From Candidatus Lokiarchaeum ossiferum (lineage in GTDB: Archaea; Asgardarchaeota; Lokiarchaeia; Sigyniarchaeales; Promethearchaeaceae), in the NCBI GenBank assembly GCA_025839675.1, contig CP104013.1, forward strand, positions 3,420,001 to 3,452,000: 32,000 nt of DNA, given 5' to 3'. This document shows, piece by piece, positions 4,105 through 20,552 of this stretch; position 1 is the first letter of the stretch, and each line of letters opens with the position of its first letter. Under the pieces are notes generated by a model. It searched no databases, was not told where the DNA came from, and saw only the letters and a list, made by a program, of their open reading frames with translations. Made by a program: the position numbers and the translations under genes.

Positions 4105-4126
4105 AATGTATCATTTCTTGATTTCT

Positions 4127-5068
4127 TTACTTATATTTTTCTCGACGGATCATGTCTACAAAAGATTCAATGCGGGTTGTCAATCCTGATTCCCCTGAAT
4201 GTTCATCTAAAATCAAATCCAAATATGGAATTTTGCGACGTTTCATATCTCGCATAACTAATTCTTGAATTAAACTATCAGGACCACATGCAAAAGAGAT
4301 CAAAAAAATCACCCCATCAACCTGATCACGACCTTCCGTAAGGTAATATCGAGCAGTTTTGAGAATCTCATCTTCGCTTTGCCAATATTGGTGGTATTGC
4401 TTGTTAATTGTGACTGGTTTTTTGAAAATTTCTTTTGGGTGCTTTTCTATGGTCATTATATGGCAATCCATGGCTTTTAATCGCGCGATTAAATCGATGT
4501 TGATATAAGCCTCATAGACATTGTATGGATGTCCTAGGATCACGATATTTAAGGGAAATTTGCCTTTCATTTCTTTCGACATTCGATGGCGAAAATGTTT
4601 TTCAGTCTGTTTATGGGCAGAATTTGAATCTAATTGATTTAAAAGTTCAATATAATCTCCCTTACGAGCTTGCGATTGGAATTTTTGAAATTTTTGCATC
4701 GCAAAATACCATGCTTCCCCCGATTTTTCTTGATCAAATCCTAACTCTTTCCCCATTTTGATCGCACCCTCAATTCCTTTCATTTTTTTTGCATTTACTT
4801 CCAAGGTTAAGATTGGTACAGGAATATTCATTCCATGTTTAACGGCTTCTGGTAGAATGAGGAATTTTGGGCAGAAATATTGTTCTTTATGATTAGAAAT
4901 ATATCGGGGGATGAAAATATAATCTAAATTTGAATATTCATCGATAAGTGCTTTTATATGACCAAAATATATCTTCATTGGAACACACAATTCCGAATTT
5001 GCGATTTTCGAGCCATTCTCAACTATGTTTGTAGTGGTTGCTGGGCTAAAAACTACTTCGCAGTTCAA
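4127..5068 (-). CDS. DUF2229-like (CoA enzyme activase domain) subunit; true start unresolved and probably upstream of 5068
   Basis: The track ORF starts at TTG 5068. The same frame stays open to 5242 and encodes KRVGIPRALYFYKYGPLWKAFLEN directly upstream, which is the conserved N-terminal motif of this domain family. The body contains SELCVPMK, FCPKF and ISFACGPDS motifs. See the finding at 5066-5245. Confidence 0.75.
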   Translation of the reverse strand: MNCEVVFSPATTTNIVENGSKIANSELCVPMKIYFGHIKALIDEYSNLDYIFIPRYISNHKEQYFCPKFLILPEAVKHGMNIPVPILTLEVNAKKMKGIEGAIKMGKELGFDQEKSGEAWYFAMQKFQKFQSQARKGDYIELLNQLDSNSAHKQTEKHFRHRMSKEMKGKFPLNIVILGHPYNVYEAYINIDLIARLKAMDCHIMTIEKHPKEIFKKPVTINKQYHQYWQSEDEILKTARYYLTEGRDQVDGVIFLISFACGPDSLIQELVMRDMKRRKIPYLDLILDEHSGESGLTTRIESFVDMIRREKYK

Positions 5069-5242
5069 GTTCTCAAGAAATGCTTTCCATAAAGGACCAT
5101 ATTTGTAAAAATATAGGGCTCGGGGAATACCAACTCTTTTCTTTCCATTAGTTGAAAGAAGGGTAATTGATGGATCAGCTATATTATTATTCGTTTTTTT
5201 CCCCTCGCATAAATTATCAATATCTTCTCTTCTTTTTCTTTT

Positions 5243-6034
5243 TTATGGCGCCTTTTTTTGTTCTTCCTCAGTGATCCAAACATCTGTCCAAAGTTTTTTA
5301 ACTTTTCTATGGATTTTTCGAGTTAATTTATCAACTTGCTTGAAATTCAGATCCTTGAAATCAGAAGCTTGAGTTATATTAGAAATTGGAATCAAATCCC
5401 CAAATTTGACTCGAATTTTACCCTGAGGATTAATAATAGATGCTTTTTTTCCATAAATACGATCAGTGCCATAGATTGCTATTGGTAAAATTGGTGCCTG
5501 GGTACTTATTGCCAGCCGTAAAAAATCTGATTTAAATTGTAAGAGTTTTCCATTTCCAGAACCCAACTCGCCTTCTGGAAACATAACTAACAGTTTCCCA
5601 TCAAAAAGTGTTTGTTCACATCGTTCAAAGGCTTCCATGTCTTCTTCTTGGGGGCGGACAAAAATTGCTTGATTTACTCGAAAAAAGTTTTGCAGCATGG
5701 AATCAGTTCCTAATTTCGTATCCAATACCTGAATAGGAATACGTTGACTTTTATGATTAATGACAATTGAAGAGATAATTGGATCTAAAGTAGATTGAGA
5801 GTTACAAATAATGATTGCTGGACCTTCTAATGGAATAGCTTTTGAATTGAAGATTTGTAAATCATAAATCTTCTTTAAGACATTGAAAAGAATAGGATCT
5901 TCGATTCCCTTTATAAATAGTTCATCTAAAGGTTCTAAATACCCAATTTTTTTAATTACTTGCCGAAATCCGTAGATAGAGTTATTAATAGAATCAATAA
6001 TAAAACGTTTTAGAAAATTCTCTTCTTTGGGCAT
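5243..6034 (-). CDS. PlsC/LPLAT-family acyltransferase-like protein with degenerate HX4D motif
   Basis: The acyltransferase fold blocks are present: GPAIIICNSQSTLDP (block I with Ser in place of the catalytic His), FPEGELGSGNG (block III without the usual TRS) and APILPIAIYG (block IV). ATG start at 6034. Confidence 0.7.
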   Translation of the reverse strand: MPKEENFLKRFIIDSINNSIYGFRQVIKKIGYLEPLDELFIKGIEDPILFNVLKKIYDLQIFNSKAIPLEGPAIIICNSQSTLDPIISSIVINHKSQRIPIQVLDTKLGTDSMLQNFFRVNQAIFVRPQEEDMEAFERCEQTLFDGKLLVMFPEGELGSGNGKLLQFKSDFLRLAISTQAPILPIAIYGTDRIYGKKASIINPQGKIRVKFGDLIPISNITQASDFKDLNFKQVDKLTRKIHRKVKKLWTDVWITEEEQKKAP

Positions 6035-6096
6035 TTTTAACTACTATTTTTAATGAATTGTTGAAAAAAAACTTAAAGATTTTGAAGAGATAAAAA

Positions 6097-7068
6097 TTAA
6101 GAAATAGATAAATCTTCGGCAGGGTTAAAGCCTGGATCCATAATCGATTTAGGAATTTTTGCGCGTTTTTTGGTTTTTTGTTGGGTAGATATTGCAAGAG
6201 AAGCAGGAACTTTTTCTCTTTTTGAAATGGTTCGGGATTCATTCATTTCTCCACTTTGCAATTTTAAAATATCATTTCGCATTGCATTTTTAATCAATTG
6301 TGCATTCTCGTAATTTGCTTCCAAGCTGGGATCGGCATATACCGGTTTGCCGATTACAATGGATATCTCATATCCACCTTTCCATTTGATAGAAGAAGGT
6401 CCTTTATGCTTAGGGAAGACTTTATATGCTCCAATTACTGCGCACGGAACGTAAGGTACTCCAGACTCCAATACTAATCGAGCTGCTCCACTTCGAAATT
6501 CTCCAAGTGAACCATCTGAAGATCGTGTTCCTTCGGGAAACATGCCAACACATCCGCCATTTTCAAGAACATTTCTGACATTTTGCATCGCTTCTTCATC
6601 TCGCTGTCCACGTTTCAATGGAATTGTGCCAAATGGTTTGATAAATGATTTAAAGATTGGGATTTGGAAATTTTCTGCTTTGGATAACCATTGTACTTTG
6701 CGATGAACGGCACTTCCCACTAGAAATGGATCTAATTCACTTTGATGATTAGCAATTACTAAGGCTCCACCGTATTCTGGAAAATTTTCTTTCCCTCGAA
6801 TAGGATATTTCCAATAGGTTTTAAATAACTTTATAAAATTAGTTCTTCCTACATTCCAGTAGATAAAATCGTCAAAAATGTCGAGAACTCCAAATCTTTT
6901 CATAACTTTTCTTGAAATATTAGATAGTGGGTCAATGGGATTGCATTTAATTAAGTATTTTCCAAAACTCATTTTCTTCCCAGTAGTTCTTCTTTTAATA
7001 GAATTATTTGCTTTTTCCATATCACTAAGCACCCCAATACTGATAGAAATTGCTTGTAGTTTAGTCAA
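6097..7068 (-). CDS. plsC: 1-acyl-sn-glycerol-3-phosphate acyltransferase-like (PlsC/LPLAT family), canonical motifs
   Basis: Contains GGALVIANHQSELDP (HX4D), GMFPEGTRSSDG, GAARL and VPYVPCAVIG. The track start at 7068 is TTG. An ATG 16 codons downstream (7018-7020, MEKANN...) is at least as likely to be the real start. Confidence 0.85.
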   Translation of the reverse strand: MTKLQAISISIGVLSDMEKANNSIKRRTTGKKMSFGKYLIKCNPIDPLSNISRKVMKRFGVLDIFDDFIYWNVGRTNFIKLFKTYWKYPIRGKENFPEYGGALVIANHQSELDPFLVGSAVHRKVQWLSKAENFQIPIFKSFIKPFGTIPLKRGQRDEEAMQNVRNVLENGGCVGMFPEGTRSSDGSLGEFRSGAARLVLESGVPYVPCAVIGAYKVFPKHKGPSSIKWKGGYEISIVIGKPVYADPSLEANYENAQLIKNAMRNDILKLQSGEMNESRTISKREKVPASLAISTQQKTKKRAKIPKSIMDPGFNPAEDLSIS

Positions 7069-7325: not shown

Positions 7326-10300
7326 ATGTTTCCTACCAAAAATGTATCTAATCCGACAAAAGATGCGTCTAATCGTTCCGAATCTCCCCTTTTGGTAAAA
7401 TTTACCAATTTCGTTACCAATTTTATCTTTTTCTTGTTTTTTATGGTAGGGGTGCCCTTTTTACTTGGATGGGCGATATCAACTGTTACAACATCCTTAA
7501 TTTCTAATCCAGCATTATTTGACGAGATTAGGTTGGGTGTATGGCTTCTCTTTTCCGCCATTATGGTCCCAGTTGGATACATTTTCTTCTTGAAAAGTCG
7601 AAAACTTCCCATTTTTCATAAAATTACAATTTCAACCCAAGAAAAACCGTTATTCCAATCTTTAGGTCTTTTAATCCTGCCTGAACTGATTGTAGTCTCT
7701 TCATTTTATGTTTTAAATGGTGTTTTAGGCTATTCCACTTTTTTAAAAGAATTTCAATTTGCAATTATTCCAATTTTCTCTGTTGCTAGCCTTCTTCTCC
7801 TTTCTACTTATAGCATTTTAATTGATCCCACACATTTACATCTTGAAACAATAAACAGAGGTGATCAACAAGGTTATGTGGTAGCTTTTCATCAAAAATC
7901 GATGGCTAAAATCTTTCAGGATACCCTAATCTTGAAGATGATTTTGATTTTAGGTGCTTTATTTTTAGATATGCATGTGGTATTAGTTATAATAGTAGAT
8001 GGATTCTTGTTAATTTTGCTGAGTGTTTTTTCAGCATTAAGTAGCAAAATCAGCCCTGAAAAACAAGATTATCGGTTCGCTTTAAAAATAATTATTTATA
8101 AAACGGGGCTCTTAGTTGCAGGGCTCCTAATTTTTGCAATATCTCTTAATTCCTCCGAATTTAATCAAATATTATTCATTCTAACTACAATTCTCCTGAT
8201 ATTTAAGGTCGCTTTAACATCATTTATGGGTCAAATTCGGAACTTAAACTACAATGAGGCGATGTGGCAACGAAGTAAGAAAATAAATGATATTTTGACT
8301 CTCATTCTTTATTTATGTTCTATTCCCCTAATTTTTCTTAGATTTGGGGAATTAGGAGGAATTTTTGCATTCATCACAGTTCTTCTATTCGTTCCCCTAA
8401 TTTTTATAGAAAATCATTACGAGATTACCAATAAGGAATTTGCGCGCATTTTCTACATGGCCAATTTACTGATTTGCGATGCTATATTGTCTTTCTTTGT
8501 TATTCCAACTAGTTTATTTGGTTCTTCTGTAATGGTGAATATAGTCATTTTTACCCTCTTGTTGACAGTATTTTCTTCTGTTTTGGACTACCAGAAGCTC
8601 ATTAGTAAAAAGGCTTATGTGATTTTGCAGAATATTTTATTGACAACCCTCTTCTTTGAGATTGCCATCCAATTAGCGATGTTTAATTTTCTTCCTATCT
8701 CCAATTCGGTAGTTTTCAACTACATTTGGTTTTTATCAATTGGATTTCTTAGCTCTTTTTATCGTCTCTATGTTGTTCAGTTCAAAAAACAAACGAATCG
8801 GTATCTTTCTGTCATTATTATTGGGTGTTTCTACATTATTTTCAGTGGAATATTTCTTCTTCTCACTAAAAATCTTGTAGGAATTAATGATCGGCTAATT
8901 TCCCCTATCCAAGAGGGAACGGGTCTTCCTATTATTTTTCGCCCTTCTGGTTTTATTTCTTTTATTGAAAATTCTTTAGAGAACTTTTTCTCGTGGATTG
9001 GCACTCTGAATGCAAATTTCAGCGCTATGATACCTTCATCAAACGGATTGATCAGTTTATGGAACTTATTTCTATGTCTAGGACTCACTCTTGGAATGCT
9101 ATTTTTTGTGTTGAACATTCATAAACAACTAAAAATCCTTAATTCTAATGTATATCTTAAAAATACTTTAATTCTTCAGTTATTTGGCAATATTGTGCTC
9201 TTTTTTGGAACATTATTGGTATTTCAATCTTTTTTTGGACTGTTTTTAGCTATTTCCATTGCTATTCTTGGAGTATCTCGTATTATTAGAAAGATGTTTC
9301 AACTCAAATTGAAGATTGATGATCAAGCAAAATATGATCAAATAACTCAAAAATTAATTCTATTTAATTTGGGATTGTCTCTTTTCTGTTTTCTCTTCTT
9401 TAGTTGGGAAATAATGCAGCTAAATGTATTTTTATCATTAGTAATTGCGATGTTTGTACTGAAAGTATATGTTAATCTTGTGCCTATCGTTAAAAATGCT
9501 TTAAATCACGTTGTTAATGGAAAAATGACTCTCCATTTAATTAATGGGGTGATTACATGTTTAATATCCGGCTTATTAATACCTTCAGTTATTCTCAATC
9601 TTGAATCTATTTTTGCAATTCAGCCTTCTATTCATCTCGGCATCTTAGCTAGCAGTTCCATTCTTATTCTTACTCTGTTTTACCGGCTTGCTTTGCCTCA
9701 ATTTTTAAAAGGAAATTATTTAACCCAACTGCAATATTCAAAAATGGTTTTCCTGAATTCAATCGTATTTCTTGGTTCAGTGTATGCAGTAGTCGAGATA
9801 ATTGGGTTGCATTATATTTCATGGATAAATCTACAACATCAATCATTATCAATCAATCTCTGGGTTATTTTTGTTCCCCTTTATGCCATTTGGTTCATTT
9901 CAAATAGACAAAAGACATCTTCTCTCAGGAAAGATGACGAATTTGTAAAATTAGGATGGCAAATCGCTACCCTTGTACTCTGGATTATATCGACAAGTGG
10001 ATTCGCTTTTTCTTTAATGTACTCTTTAGCTTTTAGCTTGTTTTTTGTCTCCCTTGGAGTGATAATTTTGGGCACATGCACAATTACCACTTTAAATTAC
10101 TTAACTCAACTAAAACCTGCCTTAGAACCGAAATTAAGTGAATTGAAAACTCGAATTTCTTATATCACCATTTTATTGATCATCTTAGCGGTGTTTTCTG
10201 CTAGCTATAAAACACCCGATGATGGTCTTTCGGCTTCTCTCTCCTTGGTGTTTGCTCTCCTATCTGCCATTATTTTATTCAATTCCGTTCCTCTCCTTCG

Positions 10301-13300
10301 AAAAAGCTTATCGACTAAGGCTTTATTCATTTTAAATGCATCATTCTTAGTTTCTTTATCAATCGTGATTGATACATCCATTCTTATTCCTTTAAATGAG
10401 ATACAATCTATATCACTTTCGGTCTTTTCAGCGAGTTTTTTAATTCCATTAGTAATGATCCAATATTCTATCTACCTTTTAGGTAAAAGTGTAATTGCTC
10501 ATGAACTCTCTCGAAAGATTCATCAAATCGTTGCATTTATAGGATTAATTACCATAGCCAGCATTCCATTTGAATCGATTCTAAATTCTTCTGGTGGAGT
10601 ATTTTTAGCGCTCTTTGTGTCTTCATTAATTATCACAGCACTTTTAGTAGTCGATATGGTCACTTTCAAATGGATAACTACCGATCGCTTAATCCTTTTG
10701 GTGTTTCTCATAGCATTTGCTACTAATGCAACTTCGTTAGGATTATTTGTAAGCAATAATCTTGATTTAAATTTAGATTATAAGATAGTGATTTTCATTC
10801 TTTTCATGCTCCCCTGTGTTTTTAGTTTGCTAAAATTTGTAGATTGGGGAAACAATAAGTTGTTACAAAAAAGGTCACAGGCAACTCCTGTGCAAAATAT
10901 TTCAACGCAAAGTATTCAAACTAAATCTCAAAGTGAAGTCCCCTATCCCCCTTCAAATACTGCTGTAAATATTCATAATGTTCCCAATGTTCCTTCGATG
11001 CAACAACCTATTATTTCTGATCCAATTCAGTATTCTGGTGATTTGCCCTTAACTCATAATCTTCAACAGCAAATTTTAAGTCACTATGATTCCATTGTTC
11101 CTATTTTTGATATTTTATGTTTATTGATTTCTTCTTATTTAGGCCTTCGAATGATTTTCAGTGATGCTCTATCATTTCCATTGGCGATATTAATAATGGG
11201 AACTTCCATTCTATCTGCCTTGACAACTTTTGATAATAAAACTAAAATGACTTCCTTTTTCATTGAATATTTCCAAGCCTTAATTTCAATTGCTCTTTAT
11301 TTCTTATTCACTATAGATGTTGAAGGTTCCTTCATTATCAACATTCTACCTAATGTTTCTGAAAATGTCATTATTTGGCTTATTTTCGCTCTTCAACTTC
11401 TTTTTATTGGGTTTTCTGCTTTTATTTCCACCCATCACACTCCTGTTAATAAAATTGTTAAAAATTCACAATCACTATTCTTGTTCGCCTTAATTGGATA
11501 CCCTTTCATTGCAACTCCTTTTATCGCAGAAAAAATACCAATAACTCTCGCATTAACATTTATAGCACTAATTTTTACCATTAGTATAGATTTTCGCTTT
11601 AAAAATCTCCTTTTCCGTTCTATATTACCCTGGAGTTTAGCCACTTTGGTAGGACATCTCCTGTGGAATTACTCTGATCGACCTTTACATTTAGACATAC
11701 TTATTCCAATTACTGTCGGAATGGTTTTACAATGGGTGCTTCTTCAATATTATTATCTTGGAAATTCCAAAATTAGTAAATTTAAAAGCATCATAGGATA
11801 TTCTGCCATTTTATTGAGTTTAACTACCTATATTACTTTATATCTTGAATTTAAATTTGTGATGGGACTACTTTCTCCAGTTGTTTTCAGTTTATTAATT
11901 ATTACCCTTCTTCAATTGAAGAAAATACCCTCCCTCTCCCATCGAATCTCCATTTATAATCAAATCATAATTCTATCTACTTTTGTGGTTTTCTTTTTCG
12001 CAGGAGCTCACTATTTCTTTTTTACTTTTGAATATAAATGGTATCTTGCCATTTCCCTCGCTAGTACCGCATCTGGGTTTGTAAACTTAAAACTTTTTGA
12101 CAAATTAAATGTTCAAGCTTCAAAATTTATAATTGGAAATTTAGGATTATCAACCATTTCGTCTGGACTATTATTCGGTCTTTTTCTTAATGATCCAACC
12201 CTTATTGATATGAAATTAAAGTTTGTTGTCCCTATTGCCATTGATTTAGCAGTACTCATGTTTTTCTTGGCAATTCGAGCCTATCAAGGATCTTTCAAAC
12301 AAGTGTGGGATTATGGATGGTATATATGGAATATCATGCCTATTGTTAATTTGTTCCTCATTTTTCCACTTGTATCAGGATTAGATCAATTATCAAGTGG
12401 TATTCCGCTCATAAATGATCTTTCTCTCAATGGTTCCATTATTCTTACCTTAATCTTAGTTTCTTTTCTTGAATTACCGGTATTCATCTCCAAGTTAAAG
12501 AAGAATTTCAATCGCATAATTTATGGATTTTGGCTGGAGTTTGTTGTTTTAAGTATTTGGGGAGCAGAAAATCTTTTTCCAGAATTGCTAACAGTAAAAC
12601 TTGCTTTCATTGGACTTGCAGCATTTTTGCTTTTGGTCCCAATTTTCACTTATTACAAGCAATGGAATTATCTAACTATCCTTTGGCCTTTTTTAGCTGC
12701 TGCAAACATTCTTTTCTTTTCTTTTCTGTTTGAAATAGATCCTAGTTGGATGATCCCTGTGGATTCTTTGGTTGGAGGACTTTATGTTCTAGTGTGGGGT
12801 TATTTTCCCAATATCAAAGAAAAATTTACAAAAACTCGTTTAGCTCTTATTCTTATTGGTTATTTTTCAATGTATGTAAGTATTTTTGCTTTAGTTTTCA
12901 ATTTTGTACAATTGATAGGTGTCCCCTCGAATATTGCTTTAAGCCTTACATTTATTATTATGTCATTTGGGCTACTTTCTGGAAAATGGGTCGATCTTAG
13001 TGAAAAAGGGTTGAAAGTTGTTCTTTCCGTTACCTCTGTTGTGAACATGGGTATAATTACTGCTCAATCTATGGCTTTAATTCCTGGATACGATTTAAAA
13101 TTATTTGGCATTTTTCTAGGGCTTTCATTTTCCTTTGGCTCTCTATTCATCTTCCAATCAAGAAATTTCCTCCCCCCTGTTTTCAAAGAAATTATTTGGT
13201 TTGGTATGGCTTTATCCATGGGATTAGCAATCGCATCATTGTTGCTATTTTTGTGGCATGCAGGCATTTGGGCCGTTATTGGTGTCTTAATCCTAGTAAC

Positions 13301-16300
13301 ATGTCTTATCTGCCTTCCCTTGTCCTTCTTCCGACAAAATCTCTTTATTATCAATTCGTTCATGGTGCTAAGTATTTCCTTATTAAGTATGCAACCTTTG
13401 GTCCATATTTCCAAATTTGTGGAATTTCATCAACCGTTGGTGTTCATTGATATCTTTTTAGGATTAGAACTCGTTTACTTGTGGATTTCTGCTAAAAAAC
13501 CACGCTATTCGTTATTTCAGAACTTAAAGAAAAATTTGGAAATGTTTGTCATTTTATGGATGGTCTTTTCAACCCTAATCTCATTCACTTTTATTCGTTT
13601 TGTAATGGATTTGATGCATTTTGATTTTGATTTAATTATTGTTTTTGGGACGATATTAGGTTTCAGTCTTCTTGCCTTATTGGGTATGAAACCAATTCGA
13701 GATTACGCTCTTTTTAATCAATTTTCAGTTATTGATAAGATCATAACGCATTTACGAACGAGTTTAAGTATTATTTCCTATGGGAGTGCAGCAATTCTGA
13801 TTGGTATTATTTTGCCTTCCACTTCCATTTCTACTGCAAATCCGATTCTATTTAATATTTGTTATCGATTGGCTGTAATTTCTCTAGTTTTGCTCGTGGA
13901 GTTTTCTGTTCTTGATAGTTATCAAGTGAAATTAATTCCGCCTGAGTTACGGAGTCAACTGACTTGGATATTCTTTTTCATATTCACTCTTTGTGGATTT
14001 GGGTTAGTTCAGCTAAGTGTTGAATATTGGGCACTTTCCCTATTCTTACTTTGTCTTTTCACTTTTGCCACAATCCGATTGATAGTCAATGCCAATACAA
14101 AAATAAACCCTAAAAATTTGAATTTAGGAAACGCATTAGTACTGATTGGGACTTTGTTTAGTGTACTATGGGGAGTTTTAAAAATCGAAGAGCATGTGAT
14201 TGATAAAAATTTCCATACATTATCGTTGAATTTGTTGATCGCCAGCCTTCTTGTGTATGGATTTGCAAAAATTAAGATTATACCTGCCAAAATTCTCCAA
14301 TTTATTCCCTATATTATCAGTTTCTTTATGGCAATACTACTGGAAGAACTTAGTCGCGTCTATTTACCGTTATCTCCTTTATTCCATTGTTGCGTCTTTA
14401 TTCTGTTCTTTTCAATTCTAAATTTAAAACGTATAACTCATTCTTTTCTTGTCTATTTCTTCTGGCTTGGTTTAGCCCTTTCTCTTTCCGGTTTTATTAT
14501 GGAGCCGATCTCAATTCTTGCTGGGGACTCTCTTTCTCTTTATAGTAAAGTGATGATGTTCCTATTTGGACTTTCTACGCTATTTTCGTTCTTTACACAT
14601 CGAATCGCCTCAATTATTCACCATCAAACTCCAAATTCACATTATGCGCTTGATGTTGCAAAACCTGCATTCAAACCTATGAAAATCAATTATGGATATA
14701 ATAACATCAAAACTAACCAGAAGATCTTCGTTGGTAGTACAATTTTTTCAGGACTTATAACTACTATAGGGGGCACATCATTATGGGCTAGTTTGATTTC
14801 ATCCAAATTGACTTCAAGTGAACTTATCACATCCTTACAGCAATCGTTCTTACTCATTTCTCTTCCTCCCTTAATCTTATCTATTTTTGCTGCCTCGATC
14901 TTTAACTATATCTGGGCTAACGAGTTATGGTTTGATCATGAAAATGTAAAAAATCGCTTGATAAAATGGCAAAAGATATCTGGAGTCCTCATTTATTTAT
15001 TCATTCCGATTTTTATTACCTCAAATCTCCATTTTCTCTTGCTTCCTGTCTTAGAAAATCTGTGGTGGAGATTTACAATCGATTATTTTGCAATTTCTGG
15101 TTTAAGTTTCATCTGTGTGTCATTATTTGATCGAAAATTTGTTCATTATCTTGATGATCAATTATCCTTGAAAATTTCTATGGTTGCTTTAGTAGGAATA
15201 GGAATTTCATTGTTCGGATTCTGGTATCTTGCTACTGGAAATATCATGGGAGGTTTAATTATATTTTCTCTCTTTTCTTTTAGTTTGAAACCTTACGTTC
15301 GGATTTATGATAAAATATACTTGAAATTCATCTTTGGTTTGAATCTAAGCCTTTATTTATGGATTTTAATACAAATTGGGGTGCTTCTATATTCGATTCC
15401 ATCATTTTGGATCCTAGCAACAATAATTCTTCTTGTCTGCATTCACATAGCTATCGAAATCGAGTCTCATTTTACCTTCTTAAGGCCTTTTACTCAGTGG
15501 ATTCAGGCATTACGATTAATTTCTTGGGTAGTTACCTCCGTAGGCACAACTGCATTGATGGTTGTGCAACAAATATCTCAATTCTCTCTTGGATACCTCT
15601 TTTTAGATATGATTATTTTAACTGTGGAAGGATTTTATTTGAATTATCTTCTTTATCATCAAAAAGATGCCGATAAATATTTCAAAAACAATCAAACTCT
15701 CGGTTTAATTGTGTATGGAGAAATTATTGGATTGATTACCTCCTTTCTAATCCCAATTATATTAGCGATCAATACAGATTCAAAAATTTTAGACTTATTG
15801 GAAAGTTTCGCGTTAGCCAGCGTTATCTGCTTCGCGATTTATGGGTTGATTTATTTAGACGATAAAATTATTCATTTGATTCAACCTCAATCTCGAAAAA
15901 TTTTACGTTTGGGCACCTATTTATTATTTATTGGAATATTTGCTATAGATTGCAGCCTTTTGGTAATGTTTATTTTCGATTTATCTCCTATTGGGGGATC
16001 ATTACCTTTCAATCAGCAGATTTTTCTTTCGTCAACCATTGGATCTGGCATTCTGGCTTTGGCATTTCTGTATCGGTTCCACAACAAAAAAATTAATCAA
16101 ATCTTTTATTGGATTGTTTCCATCCAGATTTCCATCCTTTGTTATATTTCTGATAGTCCAATCTTACTAGTTGTGGTGGCTTCTCTTTCCTTTGTCATGT
16201 ACTTCTTCATTTTCTTCATGGAAGCTATATTAAAGGCCCTTCGGATCATTATTGAAAAAATTTCTCTCTTTTTCAAGAACATATGGGGATATATTCGCCA

Positions 16301-16766
16301 ATTTCTTACTTGGATACTTCAAACACTTGTTGGATTCTATCGCAAATTTAAAAAAGCAATTTACCTTTCTTCAGCTCTAGTATTGAGTGGATTTCTATTC
16401 TATTTCTTAGGGGGGACTAATTTTGAATTAATTCCTAGAATTTCTTCCTCTATACTTGCTTTTCTCTTAGTTATTATCCCTATTTCTCCAGAAGTTCAGA
16501 AAAAAACGACAGAAAGAACATTTCTTGCAAAAATATTTTATCGATTCGGAATTTTATTCTCCGCTCTCGGAATAAGTAATCAATTTGCTCCCGATTTTCC
16601 TTGGTGGAATCCCTTCATAATTTTCATTTTCTTTGCAGCTTTTATTTGGGGTGTGAAAATATCAGAAGATGAATATAAATTGTCAATATATTGGCGTTTT
16701 AGTGCGGTTATATTAACGATCATAGATTTAATCTATCTTGTTTACGTATTCGTGTTCGGGTCGTAG
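7326..16766 (+). CDS. Giant (3,146 aa) polytopic integral membrane protein of unknown function
   Basis: A 9.4-kb uninterrupted ORF in AT-rich DNA. The translation is F/L/I/S-rich, with hydrophobic 18-25-residue segments about every 33 residues (~90 by manual count) and short K/R-containing loops. The only clearly polar stretch is a Q/S/P-rich linker at aa ~1178-1255. No known catalytic or transport motif was recognised. Confidence 0.85.
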   Translation: MFPTKNVSNPTKDASNRSESPLLVKFTNFVTNFIFFLFFMVGVPFLLGWAISTVTTSLISNPALFDEIRLGVWLLFSAIMVPVGYIFFLKSRKLPIFHKITISTQEKPLFQSLGLLILPELIVVSSFYVLNGVLGYSTFLKEFQFAIIPIFSVASLLLLSTYSILIDPTHLHLETINRGDQQGYVVAFHQKSMAKIFQDTLILKMILILGALFLDMHVVLVIIVDGFLLILLSVFSALSSKISPEKQDYRFALKIIIYKTGLLVAGLLIFAISLNSSEFNQILFILTTILLIFKVALTSFMGQIRNLNYNEAMWQRSKKINDILTLILYLCSIPLIFLRFGELGGIFAFITVLLFVPLIFIENHYEITNKEFARIFYMANLLICDAILSFFVIPTSLFGSSVMVNIVIFTLLLTVFSSVLDYQKLISKKAYVILQNILLTTLFFEIAIQLAMFNFLPISNSVVFNYIWFLSIGFLSSFYRLYVVQFKKQTNRYLSVIIIGCFYIIFSGIFLLLTKNLVGINDRLISPIQEGTGLPIIFRPSGFISFIENSLENFFSWIGTLNANFSAMIPSSNGLISLWNLFLCLGLTLGMLFFVLNIHKQLKILNSNVYLKNTLILQLFGNIVLFFGTLLVFQSFFGLFLAISIAILGVSRIIRKMFQLKLKIDDQAKYDQITQKLILFNLGLSLFCFLFFSWEIMQLNVFLSLVIAMFVLKVYVNLVPIVKNALNHVVNGKMTLHLINGVITCLISGLLIPSVILNLESIFAIQPSIHLGILASSSILILTLFYRLALPQFLKGNYLTQLQYSKMVFLNSIVFLGSVYAVVEIIGLHYISWINLQHQSLSINLWVIFVPLYAIWFISNRQKTSSLRKDDEFVKLGWQIATLVLWIISTSGFAFSLMYSLAFSLFFVSLGVIILGTCTITTLNYLTQLKPALEPKLSELKTRISYITILLIILAVFSASYKTPDDGLSASLSLVFALLSAIILFNSVPLLRKSLSTKALFILNASFLVSLSIVIDTSILIPLNEIQSISLSVFSASFLIPLVMIQYSIYLLGKSVIAHELSRKIHQIVAFIGLITIASIPFESILNSSGGVFLALFVSSLIITALLVVDMVTFKWITTDRLILLVFLIAFATNATSLGLFVSNNLDLNLDYKIVIFILFMLPCVFSLLKFVDWGNNKLLQKRSQATPVQNISTQSIQTKSQSEVPYPPSNTAVNIHNVPNVPSMQQPIISDPIQYSGDLPLTHNLQQQILSHYDSIVPIFDILCLLISSYLGLRMIFSDALSFPLAILIMGTSILSALTTFDNKTKMTSFFIEYFQALISIALYFLFTIDVEGSFIINILPNVSENVIIWLIFALQLLFIGFSAFISTHHTPVNKIVKNSQSLFLFALIGYPFIATPFIAEKIPITLALTFIALIFTISIDFRFKNLLFRSILPWSLATLVGHLLWNYSDRPLHLDILIPITVGMVLQWVLLQYYYLGNSKISKFKSIIGYSAILLSLTTYITLYLEFKFVMGLLSPVVFSLLIITLLQLKKIPSLSHRISIYNQIIILSTFVVFFFAGAHYFFFTFEYKWYLAISLASTASGFVNLKLFDKLNVQASKFIIGNLGLSTISSGLLFGLFLNDPTLIDMKLKFVVPIAIDLAVLMFFLAIRAYQGSFKQVWDYGWYIWNIMPIVNLFLIFPLVSGLDQLSSGIPLINDLSLNGSIILTLILVSFLELPVFISKLKKNFNRIIYGFWLEFVVLSIWGAENLFPELLTVKLAFIGLAAFLLLVPIFTYYKQWNYLTILWPFLAAANILFFSFLFEIDPSWMIPVDSLVGGLYVLVWGYFPNIKEKFTKTRLALILIGYFSMYVSIFALVFNFVQLIGVPSNIALSLTFIIMSFGLLSGKWVDLSEKGLKVVLSVTSVVNMGIITAQSMALIPGYDLKLFGIFLGLSFSFGSLFIFQSRNFLPPVFKEIIWFGMALSMGLAIASLLLFLWHAGIWAVIGVLILVTCLICLPLSFFRQNLFIINSFMVLSISLLSMQPLVHISKFVEFHQPLVFIDIFLGLELVYLWISAKKPRYSLFQNLKKNLEMFVILWMVFSTLISFTFIRFVMDLMHFDFDLIIVFGTILGFSLLALLGMKPIRDYALFNQFSVIDKIITHLRTSLSIISYGSAAILIGIILPSTSISTANPILFNICYRLAVISLVLLVEFSVLDSYQVKLIPPELRSQLTWIFFFIFTLCGFGLVQLSVEYWALSLFLLCLFTFATIRLIVNANTKINPKNLNLGNALVLIGTLFSVLWGVLKIEEHVIDKNFHTLSLNLLIASLLVYGFAKIKIIPAKILQFIPYIISFFMAILLEELSRVYLPLSPLFHCCVFILFFSILNLKRITHSFLVYFFWLGLALSLSGFIMEPISILAGDSLSLYSKVMMFLFGLSTLFSFFTHRIASIIHHQTPNSHYALDVAKPAFKPMKINYGYNNIKTNQKIFVGSTIFSGLITTIGGTSLWASLISSKLTSSELITSLQQSFLLISLPPLILSIFAASIFNYIWANELWFDHENVKNRLIKWQKISGVLIYLFIPIFITSNLHFLLLPVLENLWWRFTIDYFAISGLSFICVSLFDRKFVHYLDDQLSLKISMVALVGIGISLFGFWYLATGNIMGGLIIFSLFSFSLKPYVRIYDKIYLKFIFGLNLSLYLWILIQIGVLLYSIPSFWILATIILLVCIHIAIEIESHFTFLRPFTQWIQALRLISWVVTSVGTTALMVVQQISQFSLGYLFLDMIILTVEGFYLNYLLYHQKDADKYFKNNQTLGLIVYGEIIGLITSFLIPIILAINTDSKILDLLESFALASVICFAIYGLIYLDDKIIHLIQPQSRKILRLGTYLLFIGIFAIDCSLLVMFIFDLSPIGGSLPFNQQIFLSSTIGSGILALAFLYRFHNKKINQIFYWIVSIQISILCYISDSPILLVVVASLSFVMYFFIFFMEAILKALRIIIEKISLFFKNIWGYIRQFLTWILQTLVGFYRKFKKAIYLSSALVLSGFLFYFLGGTNFELIPRISSSILAFLLVIIPISPEVQKKTTERTFLAKIFYRFGILFSALGISNQFAPDFPWWNPFIIFIFFAAFIWGVKISEDEYKLSIYWRFSAVILTIIDLIYLVYVFVFGS

Positions 16767-16769
16767 TTG

Positions 16770-17405
16770 TTATTTTTTTTTAATTCTTTTCAAGGTATCA
16801 ATTCGAGAAATTTGGCCTTGTAAAAGCATCTTGCAAATTTCTAGTTGTTCAATAGATTTTTCAATTTCTCCCTTAAGTTGGTCTAGTTCGTCATTAGTAC
16901 GTTTATTGGGGATTTGATTGGCAACTTGGCTATCAAAATCAATGAGAAATGGACCTAAATAGTTCTCAGCAAATTTCTTATCAGGAAATTTTGTTCCTTT
17001 GAGATCGATTTTCGAATGCCCTGTCGTATTGCTCTCATTGGAACTTAAAGCAGCATCTAAGGCATCATCATTTAGATTTTTAATCACTCGAGTTAGTTTC
17101 TTTCCTTTAGGTGTCAATTTATAAAAAATCATCTGTCGTTTACTATTATTATCTGTTCGATCTTGAGCAACCCCCTTTTTGATAAGAAATTCCCTGTCTA
17201 ATTTCTTCAAAATTGGATATACTGTCCCAGATTTAACATTCCAACTGTAGGATTCTCGCAAGTGTGTCATTATCTGGTATCCGTACACGACATTTGAATC
17301 ATTGATCGGATCCTCAATAATTTCATCAATCGCCATTAGAACTAGGGCAGTTGCTACTGATACTGTTTTACCTTTATTATCTAAACGAATTTTTTTTGAA
17401 AACAT
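16770..17405 (-). CDS. PadR-family winged-helix transcriptional regulator with long C-terminal coiled-coil extension
   Basis: YGYQIMTHLRESYSWNVKSGTVYPILKKLDREFLIKK matches the PadR wHTH signature. The C-terminal ~60 aa (DELDQLKGEIEKSIEQLEICKMLLQGQISRIDTLK) are heptad-like. The gene lies 4 nt downstream of the 2TM gene. Confidence 0.85.
   Translation of the reverse strand: MFSKKIRLDNKGKTVSVATALVLMAIDEIIEDPINDSNVVYGYQIMTHLRESYSWNVKSGTVYPILKKLDREFLIKKGVAQDRTDNNSKRQMIFYKLTPKGKKLTRVIKNLNDDALDAALSSNESNTTGHSKIDLKGTKFPDKKFAENYLGPFLIDFDSQVANQIPNKRTNDELDQLKGEIEKSIEQLEICKMLLQGQISRIDTLKRIKKK
16773..16781 (+). terminator. Oligo-T (T9) tract immediately after the giant gene stop; candidate archaeal terminator
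   Basis: TAG lies at 16764-16766 and is followed by TTGTTA and then T9. The same bases encode the KKK C-terminus of the convergent PadR gene. Confidence 0.3.
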
Positions 17406-17409
17406 CTTT

Positions 17410-18036
17410 TTAATCTTCTTTATCGATATTTTTTTCTTTCCGCTCTTTTTTAGCTTCTAGCTTTCCTTGTTTCAATTTTTCTTCCATTTTCATTTTTTCA
17501 ATCTCAATACCAATACGTCTTTCCATTTTGGAAGTATCATCATTTTCAAAAACAATGTAGGCATAAGCTGCTGCAATTAATATTCCTCCAACTGTGACCC
17601 ATGGCCACCAAATCATAGAACTTTCGGTAATGTGATTTACATAATAATTAACATATACTAAAAATCCTAAAATATATCCCCCAATTGAGATTGTTATTGA
17701 AAAGATTCGCTGTTCCAAGTTCATTATATTAATAGTCAACACAATTGCAGCATGTGCCCACAATATCAATCCCCAACCCAAAATCGCCCAAATACACCAT
17801 AAATCATAAAAACCAAAATTCGCTGGAGTAGAAACTGCAAAGAGATTAATTATTGCGATGAACACATTAATGAAAAGATAAATTATTGCATGCACTTTTA
17901 GAGAACCTTTTAAAAGTACGCGGGTTTTTGCTAATTCTTTTAATTCATAATATTCTAAGGGTAAATTTTCCTCATCCTCAGGATCATCATGATCGATTTC
18001 ATCAACTAAACGTTTTATTAGCTTTCTTTTCGCCAT
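17410..18036 (-). CDS. Membrane protein with two 2TM-domain-like repeats (4 TM), acidic N-terminus and K/E-rich C-terminal tail
   Basis: LKVHAIIYLFINVFIAIINLF...WCIWAILGWGLILWAHAA is followed by a second copy, GGYILGFLVYVNYYVN...IWWPWVTVGGILIAAAYAY. ATG start; apparently co-transcribed with PadR. Confidence 0.7.
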   Translation of the reverse strand: MAKRKLIKRLVDEIDHDDPEDEENLPLEYYELKELAKTRVLLKGSLKVHAIIYLFINVFIAIINLFAVSTPANFGFYDLWCIWAILGWGLILWAHAAIVLTINIMNLEQRIFSITISIGGYILGFLVYVNYYVNHITESSMIWWPWVTVGGILIAAAYAYIVFENDDTSKMERRIGIEIEKMKMEEKLKQGKLEAKKERKEKNIDKED

Positions 18037-18060
18037 AGACTTAAATTTACTAATCCTTTG

Positions 18061-18113
18061 AGGATATATATTTTTTTGTACGGAAGATAGTCAGACCTAT
18101 ATATAGATATCCT
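18061..18113. promoter_or_regulatory. Imperfect inverted repeat AGGATATATAT-N29-ATATAGATATCCT overlapping TATA-like sequence upstream of the 2TM-PadR operon (candidate operator/promoter)
   Basis: The arms at 18061-18071 and 18101-18113 match 10/11 as reverse complements. The left arm, read on the minus strand (ATATATATCCT), is centred ~30 nt upstream of ATG 18036. Confidence 0.3.
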
Positions 18114-18233
18114 TTTCGAGATTTTACACCATATCTGAATGAACTAAAATTCTCATCCAAAAATTTTTAACAGTAAAGCATGTGATAGTGACTATAAAAC
18201 CCTTGAACTCTATTAAAAAACAAAAATCTCAAT

Positions 18234-19133
18234 GTGTTTATCATGGAACAAAAAATCGGATGGATTGGAACTGGCTCTCATGGAAAGCCTATGTGTAGCC
18301 ATTTAATTAAAGCGGGTCATGAAGTAAGAATATATAGTCGTACTAAAGAAAAATGTAATGATTTAATTGAAATTGGAGCTCAAGCTTGTACTTCTCCTGA
18401 AGAAGTTGCCAAAGAAAGTGATATTATTTTCACAATGCTAGGTTTTCCTCAAGATGTACATGATGTCTATTTTGGATCCAATGGATTGCTCTCTGGAGTT
18501 AAAAAAGGTGCAATTTTAGTTGACATGACGACTTCAGAACCACTTCTTGCAAAAAAAATATATGAAACCGCAAAATTGAAAGGAGCTCATGTTCTAGATG
18601 CGCCAATTAATGGGGATGATTTAGCTGCAAGAAATAGAAATTTATCTTTTATGGTGGGGGGAGAAAAAGAGATTTTTGAAGAAATCGAGCCTCTTTTTAT
18701 GAGAATGGGAAAAAGTGCTACTTATATGGGACCCTCCGGATCTGGTCAATCCACTAAAATAACCAATCAGATTTTAATTGCCTCAACCATGGTTGGAGTT
18801 GTGGAGTCACTACAATTTGCCTATAAAAAAGGTCTTGATTTAACAGAGGTTATTAAAGTTATTGGGCAAGGAACTGCCGCGTCATGGTCTATCAATAATC
18901 TTGGGACTAGGATTATTAATGGAAAATTTGACACTGGTTTCTTTATTAAACATTTGGTTAAAGATATGCGAATTGCACTAAAAGAAGCTTCAGATATGAA
19001 TTTATCTTTACCTGGACTAGCTATGGTTCACCAGTTCTACTTAGTGGCCATGAATATGAATTTGGCCGATAAAGGGACTCATGCTCTTCACAAAGTCTAT
19101 GCTCGGATGAATGAAAACGAATTTTCGAAATAA
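18234..19133 (+). CDS. NAD(P)-dependent 3-hydroxyisobutyrate dehydrogenase / 2-hydroxy-3-oxopropionate reductase-family oxidoreductase
   Basis: Contains the Rossmann motif IGWIGTGSHGKPM, then DIIFTML, VDMTT, LDAPING, MVGG, GSGQSTKITNQ (catalytic Lys region) and KDMRIA. The track start is GTG 18234. ATG at 18243 (MEQKIGWIG) is more likely. Confidence 0.85.
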   Translation: MFIMEQKIGWIGTGSHGKPMCSHLIKAGHEVRIYSRTKEKCNDLIEIGAQACTSPEEVAKESDIIFTMLGFPQDVHDVYFGSNGLLSGVKKGAILVDMTTSEPLLAKKIYETAKLKGAHVLDAPINGDDLAARNRNLSFMVGGEKEIFEEIEPLFMRMGKSATYMGPSGSGQSTKITNQILIASTMVGVVESLQFAYKKGLDLTEVIKVIGQGTAASWSINNLGTRIINGKFDTGFFIKHLVKDMRIALKEASDMNLSLPGLAMVHQFYLVAMNMNLADKGTHALHKVYARMNENEFSK

Positions 19134-19291
19134 TATCTCTTTTTTCTCATATTATATTTTTTTGAATTAAAACCATTTTTCAAAACTAATTCAATCAAAG
19201 TTTTCTATTATTGCAAAAAATGTTAAGCTTCCAAATGAGAAAAGTTATAATTTCAATTTTCTCTGGCTTTGAATATGTTTCCCCATCTTTT

Positions 19292-19308
19292 AAAAAAAAA
19301 TTTTTTTT
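19292..19308. terminator. A9T8 palindromic tract between convergent genes: candidate bidirectional oligo-T terminator
   Basis: Reads AAAAAAAAATTTTTTTT. The plus strand presents T8 and the minus strand T9. It lies in the 242-bp spacer between the dehydrogenase (+) and phosphatase (-) 3' ends. Confidence 0.35.
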
Positions 19309-19375
19309 GAATTTTCCAACATTTTTATTAGCTGAATAATAAAAAATCATTTAGAGATAAAATTTCTTAAAATTC

Positions 19376-20398
19376 TTAGGTTTTCGAGCGCGAAAATCGC
19401 ATTATTCGTTGATTTAATCTTCCTTGGGTGTTGAAATCTAAATCACGAAGAACTATATCTCCATTGGGTTGTTCATGGATAGTAAACGCCATTTTAATCT
19501 TGCCAAAATAAGGTTCGGACGAGAAAATATGATAGAGTATATTAGGGAAGACCTCTTGATATCCCCCCCGAGGATCTTCATGAGATCGGTAAATACGTAA
19601 CATTTTATTCCGTTCTAGAAAAAGATGGGTGTCTGTAAGAGTGTAATAATAGTATCCATGATAAGACCGCTCATCTAAATTATTGAGAATTTTACTGGCT
19701 GGGTCATTCCATCGTATTTGGAGAAAGGCTTCTTCGAGTTGCGCTTTAAGTTCTCCATCCTGGATATTTCGATAATTTTTATGTGGTTTAGGTATTTGTT
19801 CCACAATTTCTAAACGTGGTGTACTTTTTGGTATTCCTGCATGCATGCAAATGGATCGTTGAGGTGTTATTGCAACCAAAGACATTAAATTATAAATATC
19901 ATCCAAAATCGCAAGAACCGCTTGACATTCTTGTCTATTAGGATAATACTTATTGACCTCATCATAGAAGCCAAATTTCAAATTCAATTCCAAATCTTCA
20001 TGATTTCCTCGTAAAAGTATAATTCTTTCAGGCCATGCTATGGACATGCTGATAAGATAGAGCAGATTTAGCAGACTAAAGTCTCCTCTATCCACATAAT
20101 CCCCCAAAAATACCATAGAATCCACTTTTTCTTCCAAAAATGGCCGTATTATCCTCAAGGTAGAATTTAAATCACCATGCGTATCTCCAACTATCAGTAA
20201 ATTGTTGAATTGGGGACCAATTTTATCTAAAATTATAAGATTTGAGTATTTGGCATATATTTTTGTAAATTCTGTCCAAATAAAACCAATTTGTCGTACT
20301 GAGAAGGGCGCTTTTTCCGTTGACATTAAAAATGCCATAGGATCTACAAGAAACTTGTGAATATTTGGGGGGATCGATGGATTATCATAAGTTCGCAT
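19376..20398 (-). CDS. PPP-family (PP1/PP2A-like) serine/threonine protein phosphatase
   Basis: The full PPP motif set is present: GDTHGD, GDYVDRG and LRGNHE, then HAG (HGG-equivalent), RSHE (RGHE-equivalent) and SSEPYF (SAPNY-equivalent). There is a ~70-aa N-terminal extension. Confidence 0.9.
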   Translation of the reverse strand: MRTYDNPSIPPNIHKFLVDPMAFLMSTEKAPFSVRQIGFIWTEFTKIYAKYSNLIILDKIGPQFNNLLIVGDTHGDLNSTLRIIRPFLEEKVDSMVFLGDYVDRGDFSLLNLLYLISMSIAWPERIILLRGNHEDLELNLKFGFYDEVNKYYPNRQECQAVLAILDDIYNLMSLVAITPQRSICMHAGIPKSTPRLEIVEQIPKPHKNYRNIQDGELKAQLEEAFLQIRWNDPASKILNNLDERSYHGYYYYTLTDTHLFLERNKMLRIYRSHEDPRGGYQEVFPNILYHIFSSEPYFGKIKMAFTIHEQPNGDIVLRDLDFNTQGRLNQRIMRFSRSKT

Positions 20399-20552
20399 TT
20401 TTTATTCCTTCTCTAAAATATTTTCGTTAATTTATTTTCTCTTTGAAGAAATTTAAACCTCTCTCTTTGGTATTGGAAATCTAAAGGGAAAGTTAGCAAA
20501 TTTTAAATTTACTATGAAAGATAAAGATATAACGACAAAAAATTGATGCCTT

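Follow-up and report, generated by a model that had tools for sequence, protein, structure and literature searches.

The giant gene of the L. ossiferum locus

We analysed a stretch of 32,000 nucleotides from the genome of Candidatus Lokiarchaeum ossiferum B-35 (contig CP104013.1, positions 3,420,001 to 3,452,000), hereafter called the window, to whose first letter all coordinates given without a locus refer. The plus strand of the window carries a giant gene for a protein of 3,146 amino acids (aa) that is built almost entirely of predicted transmembrane (TM) helices.

7326..16766, plus strand: the whole giant gene, 3,146-aa polytopic membrane protein; ATG start, stop codon at 16764-16766

The gene is a single open reading frame (ORF) of 3,146 codons, uninterrupted from ATG to stop, and its exact sequence is deposited as NEF87_002906 (UYP46621.1), where it is annotated as “hypothetical protein”. 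An earlier, sequence-only reading of the window had judged a chance ORF not credible at this place, and the base statistics bear this out. Given the base composition of the gene (T 41%, A 27%), stop codons are expected about every 16 codons, the probability of 3,146 stop-free codons is about 1e-86, and across the gene the longest ORF in the remaining five frames has 148 codons. At second codon positions T reaches 48%, as expected because the encoded protein is hydrophobic.

That the ORF is an artefact, arising by chance in T-rich DNA, by chimeric assembly or as a pseudogene in decay, could still be argued from three observations: AT-rich DNA with T at the second codon position gives hydrophobic translations, one relative (P0019) is split into ORFs of 733 and 1,870 aa, and the transcript value of the Promethearchaeum syntrophicum MK-D1 orthologue lies near the bottom of its table. 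The comparative data speak against it. A second L. ossiferum assembly has a copy of 3,144 aa, 97% identical and in the same gene context on a 6.27-Mb contig. Between these two strains the rate of nonsynonymous substitution (dN) is 0.012 and that of synonymous substitution (dS) 0.059, giving a dN/dS of 0.20, inside the range of 0.07-0.26 found for the neighbouring genes of the same strain pair. In a second Lokiarchaeum species the orthologue has 3,144 aa, 73% identity and identical neighbours, its length being within two residues of that in the window. With 73% against 79-96% for its neighbours in this species pair, the giant gene is the fastest-evolving of its block, which fits constraints that are mainly structural. 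Collinear orthologues, 3,926-3,945 aa long and 32% identical, occur in P. syntrophicum MK-D1 and its relatives; the MK-D1 gene is present on the 4.32-Mb chromosome and again in a Logan assembly built independently from MK-D1 reads. Length and collinearity are thus kept across the B-35 record (6.04 Mb), the second L. ossiferum assembly, the second Lokiarchaeum species and MK-D1, in closed genomes as well as metagenome contigs. Since dN/dS, conserved length and collinearity in independent assemblies exclude chimera, chance ORF and pseudogene decay, the artefact has a negligible probability and is already refuted in practice: the giant ORF is a real gene under purifying selection. For the MK-D1 orthologue, DSAG12_00898, a value of 152 reads per kilobase per million mapped reads (RPKM) is listed (Imachi et al. 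2020, Supplementary Tables; PMC7015854), which is weak evidence for its transcription.

Two further observations concern the gene itself. The two L. ossiferum strains differ at synonymous sites to a very unequal degree along its length (window 7326-16766 against positions 8001-17435 of locus L014): codons 1501-2000 show a proportion of synonymous differences of 0.129, against 0.017-0.045 for codons 1-1500 and 0 for the last 146, and several neighbouring genes of the same strain pair have a dS of 0-0.03. The central part of the gene may therefore have undergone recombination or be of mosaic origin. Moreover, the second strain is represented in RefSeq by a version of 3,075 aa (WP_371802129.1), about 70 residues shorter than the GenBank call, so that the pipelines disagree on the start codon; all homologues align with the long N-terminus.

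Membrane helices and topology

Leucine, isoleucine and phenylalanine together make up 40% of the translation, its grand average of hydropathy (GRAVY) is +0.95, and half of the residues lie in hydrophobic 17-residue segments. The Kyte-Doolittle scale with a 19-residue window and a threshold of at least 1.6 gave 79 non-overlapping hydrophobic segments, while hydropathy averaged over seven homologues (17-residue window, at least 1.5) gave 93; sensible settings return 80-95. These counts come from hydropathy and not from a dedicated topology predictor, so the exact number of helices is uncertain and some segments are possibly re-entrant. The 93 segments are distributed as 32 before residue 1172 and 61 after residue 1255, close to the sequence-only reading, which had counted by eye about 35 before residue ~1,170 and 55-60 after residue ~1,255. 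Furthermore, an AlphaFold2 model of residues 1441-2400 (960 aa) contains 31 helices of at least 15 aa against 32 hydropathy segments, and all 32 segments are at least 80% helical in it. Far fewer helices than the roughly 90 first proposed were thus looked for by two approaches and not seen.

The charge distribution leads to the same picture. Counts of lysine and arginine (K/R) in successive loops alternate in 79 of the 93 neighbouring pairs, compared with 46.8 +/- 4.9 by permutation, and their lag-1 autocorrelation is -0.53. This is a positive-inside pattern and it points to a real hairpin array; it would not come about by chance, which also counts against an artefactual ORF. A two-state assignment, whose rate parameters were chosen by us and which illustrates the permutation result rather than proving it independently, yields 46 inside loops with 0.168 K/R per residue and a median length of 17 aa, and 48 outside loops with 0.041 K/R per residue and a median of 11 aa. 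It places the N-terminus inside, i.e. in the cytoplasm. The first helix reads as a signal anchor and no cleavable signal peptide is seen, as had been noted from the sequence.

A large soluble domain is likewise missing, although the earlier limit of about 75 aa for non-membrane parts was set too low: the longest clearly non-hydrophobic stretch covers residues 1173-1255 (83 aa, rich in Q, S and P), and residues 2393-2507 (115 aa) are non-hydrophobic at the strict threshold, yet contain moderately hydrophobic runs. Taken together, the gene product is almost certainly an integral membrane protein with about 90 (80-95) antiparallel TM helices, a cytoplasmic N-terminus and no folded soluble domain.

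Homologues in Asgard archaea

To the sequence-only reading a polypeptide of some 90 helices was architecturally exceptional, but it is not singular: it is one member of a sizeable Asgard family, with at least one paralogue, of 4,905 aa, in the same genome. An exhaustive hidden Markov model (HMM) search with the best-conserved 960 residues returned 29 cluster representatives out of 1.84 billion, including proteins of 3,491, 4,044, 4,356 and 4,905 aa. The last is the L. ossiferum paralogue (NEF87_003094 in B-35), which has 117 hydrophobic segments at the strict setting and an equivalent, also of 4,905 aa, on CP163304.1 of the second L. ossiferum assembly. In addition, a subgroup that we call type B comprises 31 further proteins of 1,086-3,118 aa, most of them 2,500-3,118 aa, with up to 88 hydrophobic segments and a GRAVY of 1.0-1.2. 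They come from metagenome-assembled genomes labelled Promethearchaeota, Lokiarchaeota, Hermodarchaeota and Helarchaeota, and include a sequence from Loki's Castle. Type A proteins measure 3,144-4,905 aa, and across the superfamily the number of hydrophobic segments is 70-117. Types A and B are collinear end to end (2,447 columns, hhalign probability 100%, E 2e-84). The window protein shares the end-to-end collinear homology, exceeds 2,500 aa, has at least 70 segments and carries the core motif described below.

All named sources of family members are Asgard archaea, and none of the members has a precomputed Pfam domain. A scan of one genome per GTDB species found Promethearchaeum loci only, the Lokiarchaeum locus presumably being masked. 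It should be added that the default HMMER filters dropped a true 155-bit match within the window protein, to the 8-TM unit described below, which was recovered with --max; such loss through the bias filter on very hydrophobic proteins makes the family counts conservative and the HMMER negatives slightly weaker. We regard it as nearly certain that these proteins form an undescribed superfamily, so far found only in Asgard archaea. Of the two properties for which a comparison across genomes had been proposed, length is kept within two residues in Lokiarchaeum, and synteny is not conserved outside the genus.

Some relatives have peculiarities of their own. The 1,870-aa protein P0019 and the upstream 733-aa ORF together match intact relatives of 2,685 aa (locus L010, 5566-13613), so that either the gene is split by a frameshift or the metagenome contig contains a sequencing error. 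Three type B proteins (P0034-P0036) have a zinc ribbon (CSKCG...CPNCG) at residues ~165-190, and a partial type B protein (P0063) has a soluble insertion of about 130 aa at residues ~139-276, PAS-like by eye. Both occupy the same early loop, after roughly the fourth helix, and this loop may be a hot spot for inserted soluble domains. The zinc ribbon was considered as a family-wide feature and rejected, as only the three close relatives carry it.

Architecture of the protein and its conserved core

The following parts of the protein can be told apart.

7326..7421, plus strand: N-terminal polar tail, aa 1-32, four K/R, predicted cytoplasmic
7422..10841, plus strand: N-terminal helix array, aa 33-1172, about 32 hydrophobic segments
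10842..11090, plus strand: low-complexity, non-membrane Q/S/P-rich linker, aa 1173-1255, called disordered
11793..14117, plus strand: conserved core, aa ~1490-2264, the clearest common part of types A and B
12225..12896, plus strand: most conserved block, aa 1634-1857, eight helices
12375..12437, plus strand: conserved K/R-free loop, aa 1684-1704, SGLDQLSSGIPLINDLSLNGS, predicted outside
14118..14993, plus strand: 8-helix repeat unit, one copy, aa 2265-2556, about 290 aa, motif EELSRVYL
14994..16763, plus strand: C-terminal helix array, aa 2557-3146

Within the N-terminal array the homologues have 240-600 additional residues, and its AlphaFold2 model is all-helical and of low confidence, with a mean predicted local distance difference test score (pLDDT) of 54 and a predicted TM-score (pTM) of 0.34. 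Further helices fill the space between the end of the linker at residue 1255 and the beginning of the core at about 1490. The core model (residues 1441-2400) reaches a pLDDT of 68.8 and a pTM of 0.57, with values mostly of 70-90 for model residues ~20-780, corresponding to ~1460-2220 of the protein. In the C-terminal array, residues ~2965-3010 form a K/R-rich amphipathic stretch and the C-terminus bears a conserved YWRF motif; the array shows weak alignment to the C-termini of some type B proteins.

Conservation was read from an alignment of 22 sequences spanning types A and B. Near-invariant positions in the most conserved block are W1661, G1664, W1668, P1672, N1675, G1703, S1704, P1718, W1736, W1745, N1749, F1751, P1772, W1780, W1787, F1827, P1828 and Y1846, and beyond it F1927, F1943 and D2197. 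W, P, N, G and F predominate among them, located at helix ends and in loops, and the family motif of the core can be written W-x2-G-x3-W-x3-P-x2-N ... G-S ... L-P ... W ... W-x3-N-x-F ... F-P-N. Inside the membrane, N1675 and N1794 are invariant, and E1738 is the sole charge that is kept (16 of 21 sequences). The loop at 1684-1704, with the family consensus G-x-D ... T-N-A-L ... G-S, forms a small beta-hairpin in the AlphaFold2 model. The same alignment revealed no conserved His/Cys/Ser catalytic set, no chain of buried Lys/Glu and no Lys conserved inside predicted TM segments.

The strongest argument for a specific active centre comes from the invariant intramembrane Asn and Pro residues together with the conserved outside loop. 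Two alternative explanations of the protein draw on the conserved core. It might be a channel, transporter or mechanosensor in which the ~8-helix core conducts ions or solutes and the flanking arrays act as levers or as sensors of tension or curvature. The logic would be that of Piezo, which joins repeat blades to a pore module, but without homology to it. Polar or helix-breaking residues in predicted helices (N1675, P1672, N1794 and P1718 invariant, E1738 in 16 of 21) and the strict conservation of the outside loop favour this, as do the hints at regulatory input given by the ~130-aa insertion of P0063 and the zinc ribbons of three other relatives in the same early loop; the missing chain of conserved buried charges disfavours it. 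Alternatively, the protein might be a membrane-embedded enzyme (polymerase, ligase or glycosyltransferase) that works on a lipid-linked substrate with the helix arrays as accessories. Many glycosylated structures occur on the surface of Asgard cells. For L. ossiferum complex surface densities have been described (PMC9834061), and the core offers an invariant outside loop (G-x-D ... G-S) and the near-invariant D2197. An enzyme is nevertheless very unlikely: no cluster of conserved His, Cys, Arg or Asp was found, there are almost no extracytoplasmic loops big enough for an active site, and the protein matched neither GT-C, Wzy/O-antigen-ligase and MBOAT families nor other enzyme families in Pfam.

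Repeat units and length variation

The sequence-only reading had listed a concatenated array of small helical-hairpin modules among several possible designs, and this idea has gained support from tandem modules of four and eight helices and from internal repeats at profile level. A unit of about 290 aa and eight TM helices, marked by the motif EE-x-SR-x-YL, is present once in the window protein (i-E 1.2e-47 with HMMER filters off) and in its 73% orthologue, in two copies in the MK-D1 type, P0007 and P0011, in three in P0010 and in five in the 4,905-aa paralogue, in which identity between adjacent copies reaches 56%. In type B proteins a unit of about 129 aa and about four helices is repeated in tandem three to four times, with up to 72% identity. 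Tandem hairpin repeats of the superfamily are accordingly open-ended and variable in copy number, with one to five copies of the 8-TM and three to four of the 4-TM unit. In hhalign self-comparison, residues 2259-2673 of the window protein weakly resemble residues 1890-2269 as a diverged repeat (94%, E 9e-8), and most of the N-terminal 1,200 residues of type B self-align at a short offset (99%, E 2e-19). Comparison of the window protein tile against tile gave weak signals of 20-43%, which became firmer only with larger family alignments.

It is almost certain that the differences in length arose mainly by tandem duplication of 4-TM (~129 aa) and 8-TM (~295 aa) modules around a core of about eight helices. 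Because the duplicated units have even numbers of helices, topology is preserved. Recent duplications tolerated within the chain suggest an open-ended, repeat-like architecture and not a closed bundle of fixed size.

Searches for known families and folds

The sequence had also been read as having no recognisable catalytic, transporter, channel or binding domain, and our searches agree. In Pfam no family was found at E<=1 for the whole protein, at E<=10 for ten tiles of 350 aa or at E<=0.1 for 22 homologue cores, and NCBIfam, PADLOC and PHROGs gave zero matches. Neither the protein nor any of three profiles (core, N-terminal region and 8-TM unit) matched a PDB chain sequence, and for two of these searches this held up to a limit of E<=10. 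Foldseek searches of the PDB with the core and N-terminal models returned nothing significant, the best E-values being 0.34 and 0.067 with template-modelling scores (TM-scores) of at most 0.17; the N-terminal model, at a pLDDT of 54, is too poor to count for much in this test. The top non-significant matches were mostly soluble alpha-solenoids (importins, HEAT repeats of mTOR, TPR proteins and designed toroids), while the membrane proteins among the matches (ABCC1, Mrp, NuoL and XPR1) had E-values of 0.7-6 and TM-scores of at most 0.1. The literature, searched by locus tag, accession and topic, held no description of the family, and the giant protein is not listed in the supplements of two L. 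ossiferum preprints. Thus, a match to a characterised family was searched for and none was found: the sequence is public but unannotated, the family has neither a Pfam model nor a structure, and its architecture has no counterpart among characterised proteins.

Several known systems are nevertheless instructive for comparison. Piezo1 and Piezo2 are likewise very large polytopic proteins in which small helix units in tandem flank a more conserved module. The Piezo blade consists of 4-TM units, the Asgard family of 4-TM and 8-TM units, and conservation of the arrays is low in both; tandem units of ~129 aa with about four hydrophobic segments occur in type B, and the window protein shows one 8-TM unit and weak repeats only. 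The Asgard family, however, has two to three times more helices (70-117 hydrophobic segments) and lacks large soluble cap, beam or anchor domains, its unit copy number varies between close relatives, and it is archaeal and restricted to Asgard lineages. Piezo has 38 TM helices (PMC13485668), and the statement of the sequence-only reading that the window protein has far more, about 90 against 38, holds. Pfam gave no Piezo match for the whole protein, its tiles or the cores, with the caveat of the HMMER bias filter, and no Piezo chain was among the 50 best Foldseek matches of either model, none of which reached E<0.06.

These data bear on the channel, transporter or mechanosensor introduced above. 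In its favour are also the arrays in type B relatives, whose 4-TM units have the size of those in the Piezo blade, and a tension-exposed membrane without S-layer (PMC9834061). On the other side, neither Pfam, NCBIfam nor the PDB sequences gave a match to any channel or transporter family, Foldseek showed no Piezo chain and no meaningful channel score (best membrane matches E 0.7-6, TM-score at most 0.1), and a freely varying copy number of modules would be unusual for a gated machine of fixed geometry. On balance we consider such a function doubtful.

The antiporter-like subunits of complex I and Mrp (NuoL/M/N, MrpA/D) also combine many TM helices with repeated modules in a row, but each of these is a subunit of its own, with 14-16 helices and buried Lys and Glu residues that are conserved; the giant protein has no Proton_antipo_M match and no conserved charge chain, and the Foldseek matches to this group were poor (7d3u_A, E 2.4; 7p7k_L, E 5.7; TM-score ~0.08). 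The soluble alpha-solenoids (HEAT, ARM and TPR proteins such as importins and mTOR) share antiparallel hairpins, open-ended arrays and tandem duplication and provided the best, though non-significant, Foldseek matches of both giant-protein models. They differ in being water-soluble, whereas the giant protein has a GRAVY of +0.95 and 79-93 segments, and no Pfam match to a repeat family. Finally, the membrane-shaping and membrane-organising reticulon/REEP hairpin proteins and SPFH/flotillin proteins share with the giant protein the role proposed for it below, to shape or organise the bilayer by embedded hairpins. They are small, with one to four membrane segments, act by oligomerisation and have no sequence relationship to the giant protein, which is a single chain of ~90 full-length helices.

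Genomic context

Two pairs of genes flank the giant gene directly.

5243..7068, minus strand: two PlsC-type acyltransferase genes, divergent from the giant gene
16770..18036, minus strand: PadR regulator and 2TM-domain protein, convergent with the giant gene

The minus-strand genes before it encode a RagA-like GTPase, a BcrAD ATPase, two DUF2229 proteins and the two PlsC proteins; it is followed by genes for PadR, the 2TM protein, a HIBADH-like dehydrogenase, a metallophosphoesterase, GH172, GH2, ThiS and a helicase. This order is preserved in the second L. ossiferum strain and in the second Lokiarchaeum species. In MK-D1 the block DSAG12_00857-00879 is syntenic with the window (276-7068 and 16770-30342), in the order 00857 (RagA/B), 00859-00861, 00862 (PlsC), 00863 (PadR), 00866, 00871 (beta-galactosidase), 00877 (ThiS) and 00879 (helicase), but without the giant gene: PlsC DSAG12_00862 directly adjoins PadR DSAG12_00863, and the giant gene DSAG12_00898 lies ~35 genes off. 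In another relative, P0007 (locus L013), it stands between cupin and zinc ABC transporter genes that are adjacent in MK-D1 (00872 and 00873), and other family members have unrelated neighbours. Hence the giant gene stays in one chromosomal region while its insertion point changes.

The divergent acyltransferase operon and the convergent PadR/2TM pair, on which the sequence-only reading had remarked, are real in the window and in the second Lokiarchaeum species and are not conserved in P. syntrophicum. They are relevant to the possibility that the protein is a lipid-handling platform, such as a scramblase, a lipid-transfer or sorting device, or a docking site for lipid-synthesis enzymes, e.g. 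the PlsC-type acyltransferases. The divergent position to two PlsC genes and the BcrAD/DUF2229 set in both Lokiarchaeum species would fit such a role, as would the very large lipid-facing surface and the conserved Trp and Asn at helix ends, at the level of the lipid head groups. However, PlsC and PadR are adjacent in MK-D1 with the giant gene 35 genes away; the juxtaposition is lineage-specific, so it lends no support to a lipid-remodelling link and carries little functional weight. With no similarity to known scramblase, flippase or lipid-transfer families either, we consider lipid handling unlikely. The gene neighbourhood as a guide to function was rejected altogether, as no neighbour is conserved across the family.

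In two Promethearchaeum genomes a gene for an SPFH/Band_7 (flotillin-like) protein lies directly upstream of the giant gene on the same strand (L001, 8496-9731; L004, 6511-7734), and at the same two loci an unannotated gene of 282-291 aa is also directly upstream on the same strand. In MK-D1 the RPKM values of these genes are 284 and 317, compared with 152 for the giant gene (PMC7015854).

The window contains further genes that deserve mention. At 1689-5068 (minus strand), a BcrAD_BadFG ATPase and two DUF2229/HGD-D-like “CoA enzyme activase” proteins are encoded directly upstream of the two PlsC genes, a set conserved in Lokiarchaeum and, by annotation, in MK-D1. A 318-aa small GTPase of the Gtr1/RagA type (Pfam E 1e-17), of eukaryotic-signature type, is found at 276-1232 (minus strand). 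At 20553-25001 a gene for a DUF2961/GH172 protein converges on that of a 1,051-aa GH2 beta-galactosidase next to it, and the GH172 gene is missing at the corresponding position in the second Lokiarchaeum species. The gene at 26020-30342 (plus strand) encodes a 1,440-aa protein with DUF4011, an SF1 helicase (AAA_11/AAA_12) and a C-terminal restriction-endonuclease-like MTES_1575 domain.

Possible role in the membrane

The fragile cells of L. ossiferum are bounded by a single membrane, lack an ordered S-layer and form thin, branched protrusions of less than 100 nm (PMC9834061). On architectural grounds we tentatively favour, as a possibility short of an even chance, that the family serves as an open-ended intramembrane repeat scaffold of this S-layer-less plasma membrane and its thin protrusions. 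The giant protein would then be the membrane-embedded analogue of a soluble alpha-solenoid and would have a structural or organising function in the single plasma membrane and the protrusions. The conserved core could be the site of self-association, or of binding to lipids or a partner, and the variable arrays could set the size or reach of the scaffold. A TM helix occupies about 1 nm2, so that one chain would correspond to roughly 100 nm2 of bilayer, i.e. a disc of ~11 nm, or a ribbon of tens of nm if two helices wide. In favour of the scaffold we count the open-ended modular build, the mostly solenoid-like though non-significant Foldseek matches, the absence of a conserved catalytic set or charge chain from the alignment, and the flotillin gene beside the giant gene in two Promethearchaeum genomes. 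A more specific version, by which the giant single-chain solenoids assemble through the core into curved or extended arrays that shape or stiffen the membrane or sense its tension, seems rather improbable to us.

Several points weigh against the scaffold. The role is inferred by argument from architecture, and the ribbon, disc or curved shape is itself putative. The 8-helix block with its invariant Asn and Pro and mostly conserved Glu (N1675, N1794 and E1738) could equally be a centre of transport, conduction or catalysis. As to repeats, the window protein has one clear 8-TM unit and weak repeats besides: BLAST self-comparison of its 300-aa tiles gave no repeat below E ~0.03, and autocorrelation of its loop lengths showed no periodicity of two, four or eight helices. 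The solenoid-like Foldseek matches are non-significant, confidence in the N-terminal model is low (pLDDT 54), and a flotillin gene adjoins the giant gene in Promethearchaeum only. Furthermore, DSAG12_00898 ranks third from the bottom by RPKM among 116 neighbouring genes, in a table whose values span a narrow 109-375 (PMC7015854), and a value at this low end does not indicate an abundant structural protein.

Biological implications

Piezo is commonly cited as the extreme among well-characterised polytopic proteins. In the Asgard case an entire family under purifying selection has chains of 70-117 predicted helices each and essentially no soluble parts, and for one orthologue (DSAG12_00898) transcript reads are reported. 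This raises questions of how such chains are inserted by machinery of the SecYEG/YidC type, how they fold and what work a protein can do using the bilayer phase alone. The definition of the family also fills an annotation gap, its members being “hypothetical proteins” with no Pfam model.

Asgard membranes, with a single bilayer, no ordered S-layer and long actin-supported protrusions, are central to current models of eukaryogenesis, and the confinement of the family to Asgard archaea, the archaeal relatives of eukaryotes, makes it relevant to this issue. Moreover, cultures and cryo-electron tomograms exist for two of the hosts, L. ossiferum and P. syntrophicum, so that the proposals made here are directly testable. 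If the giant proteins are indeed solenoid arrays, they would represent a protein-based membrane architecture in the closest archaeal relatives of eukaryotes that has no characterised counterpart.

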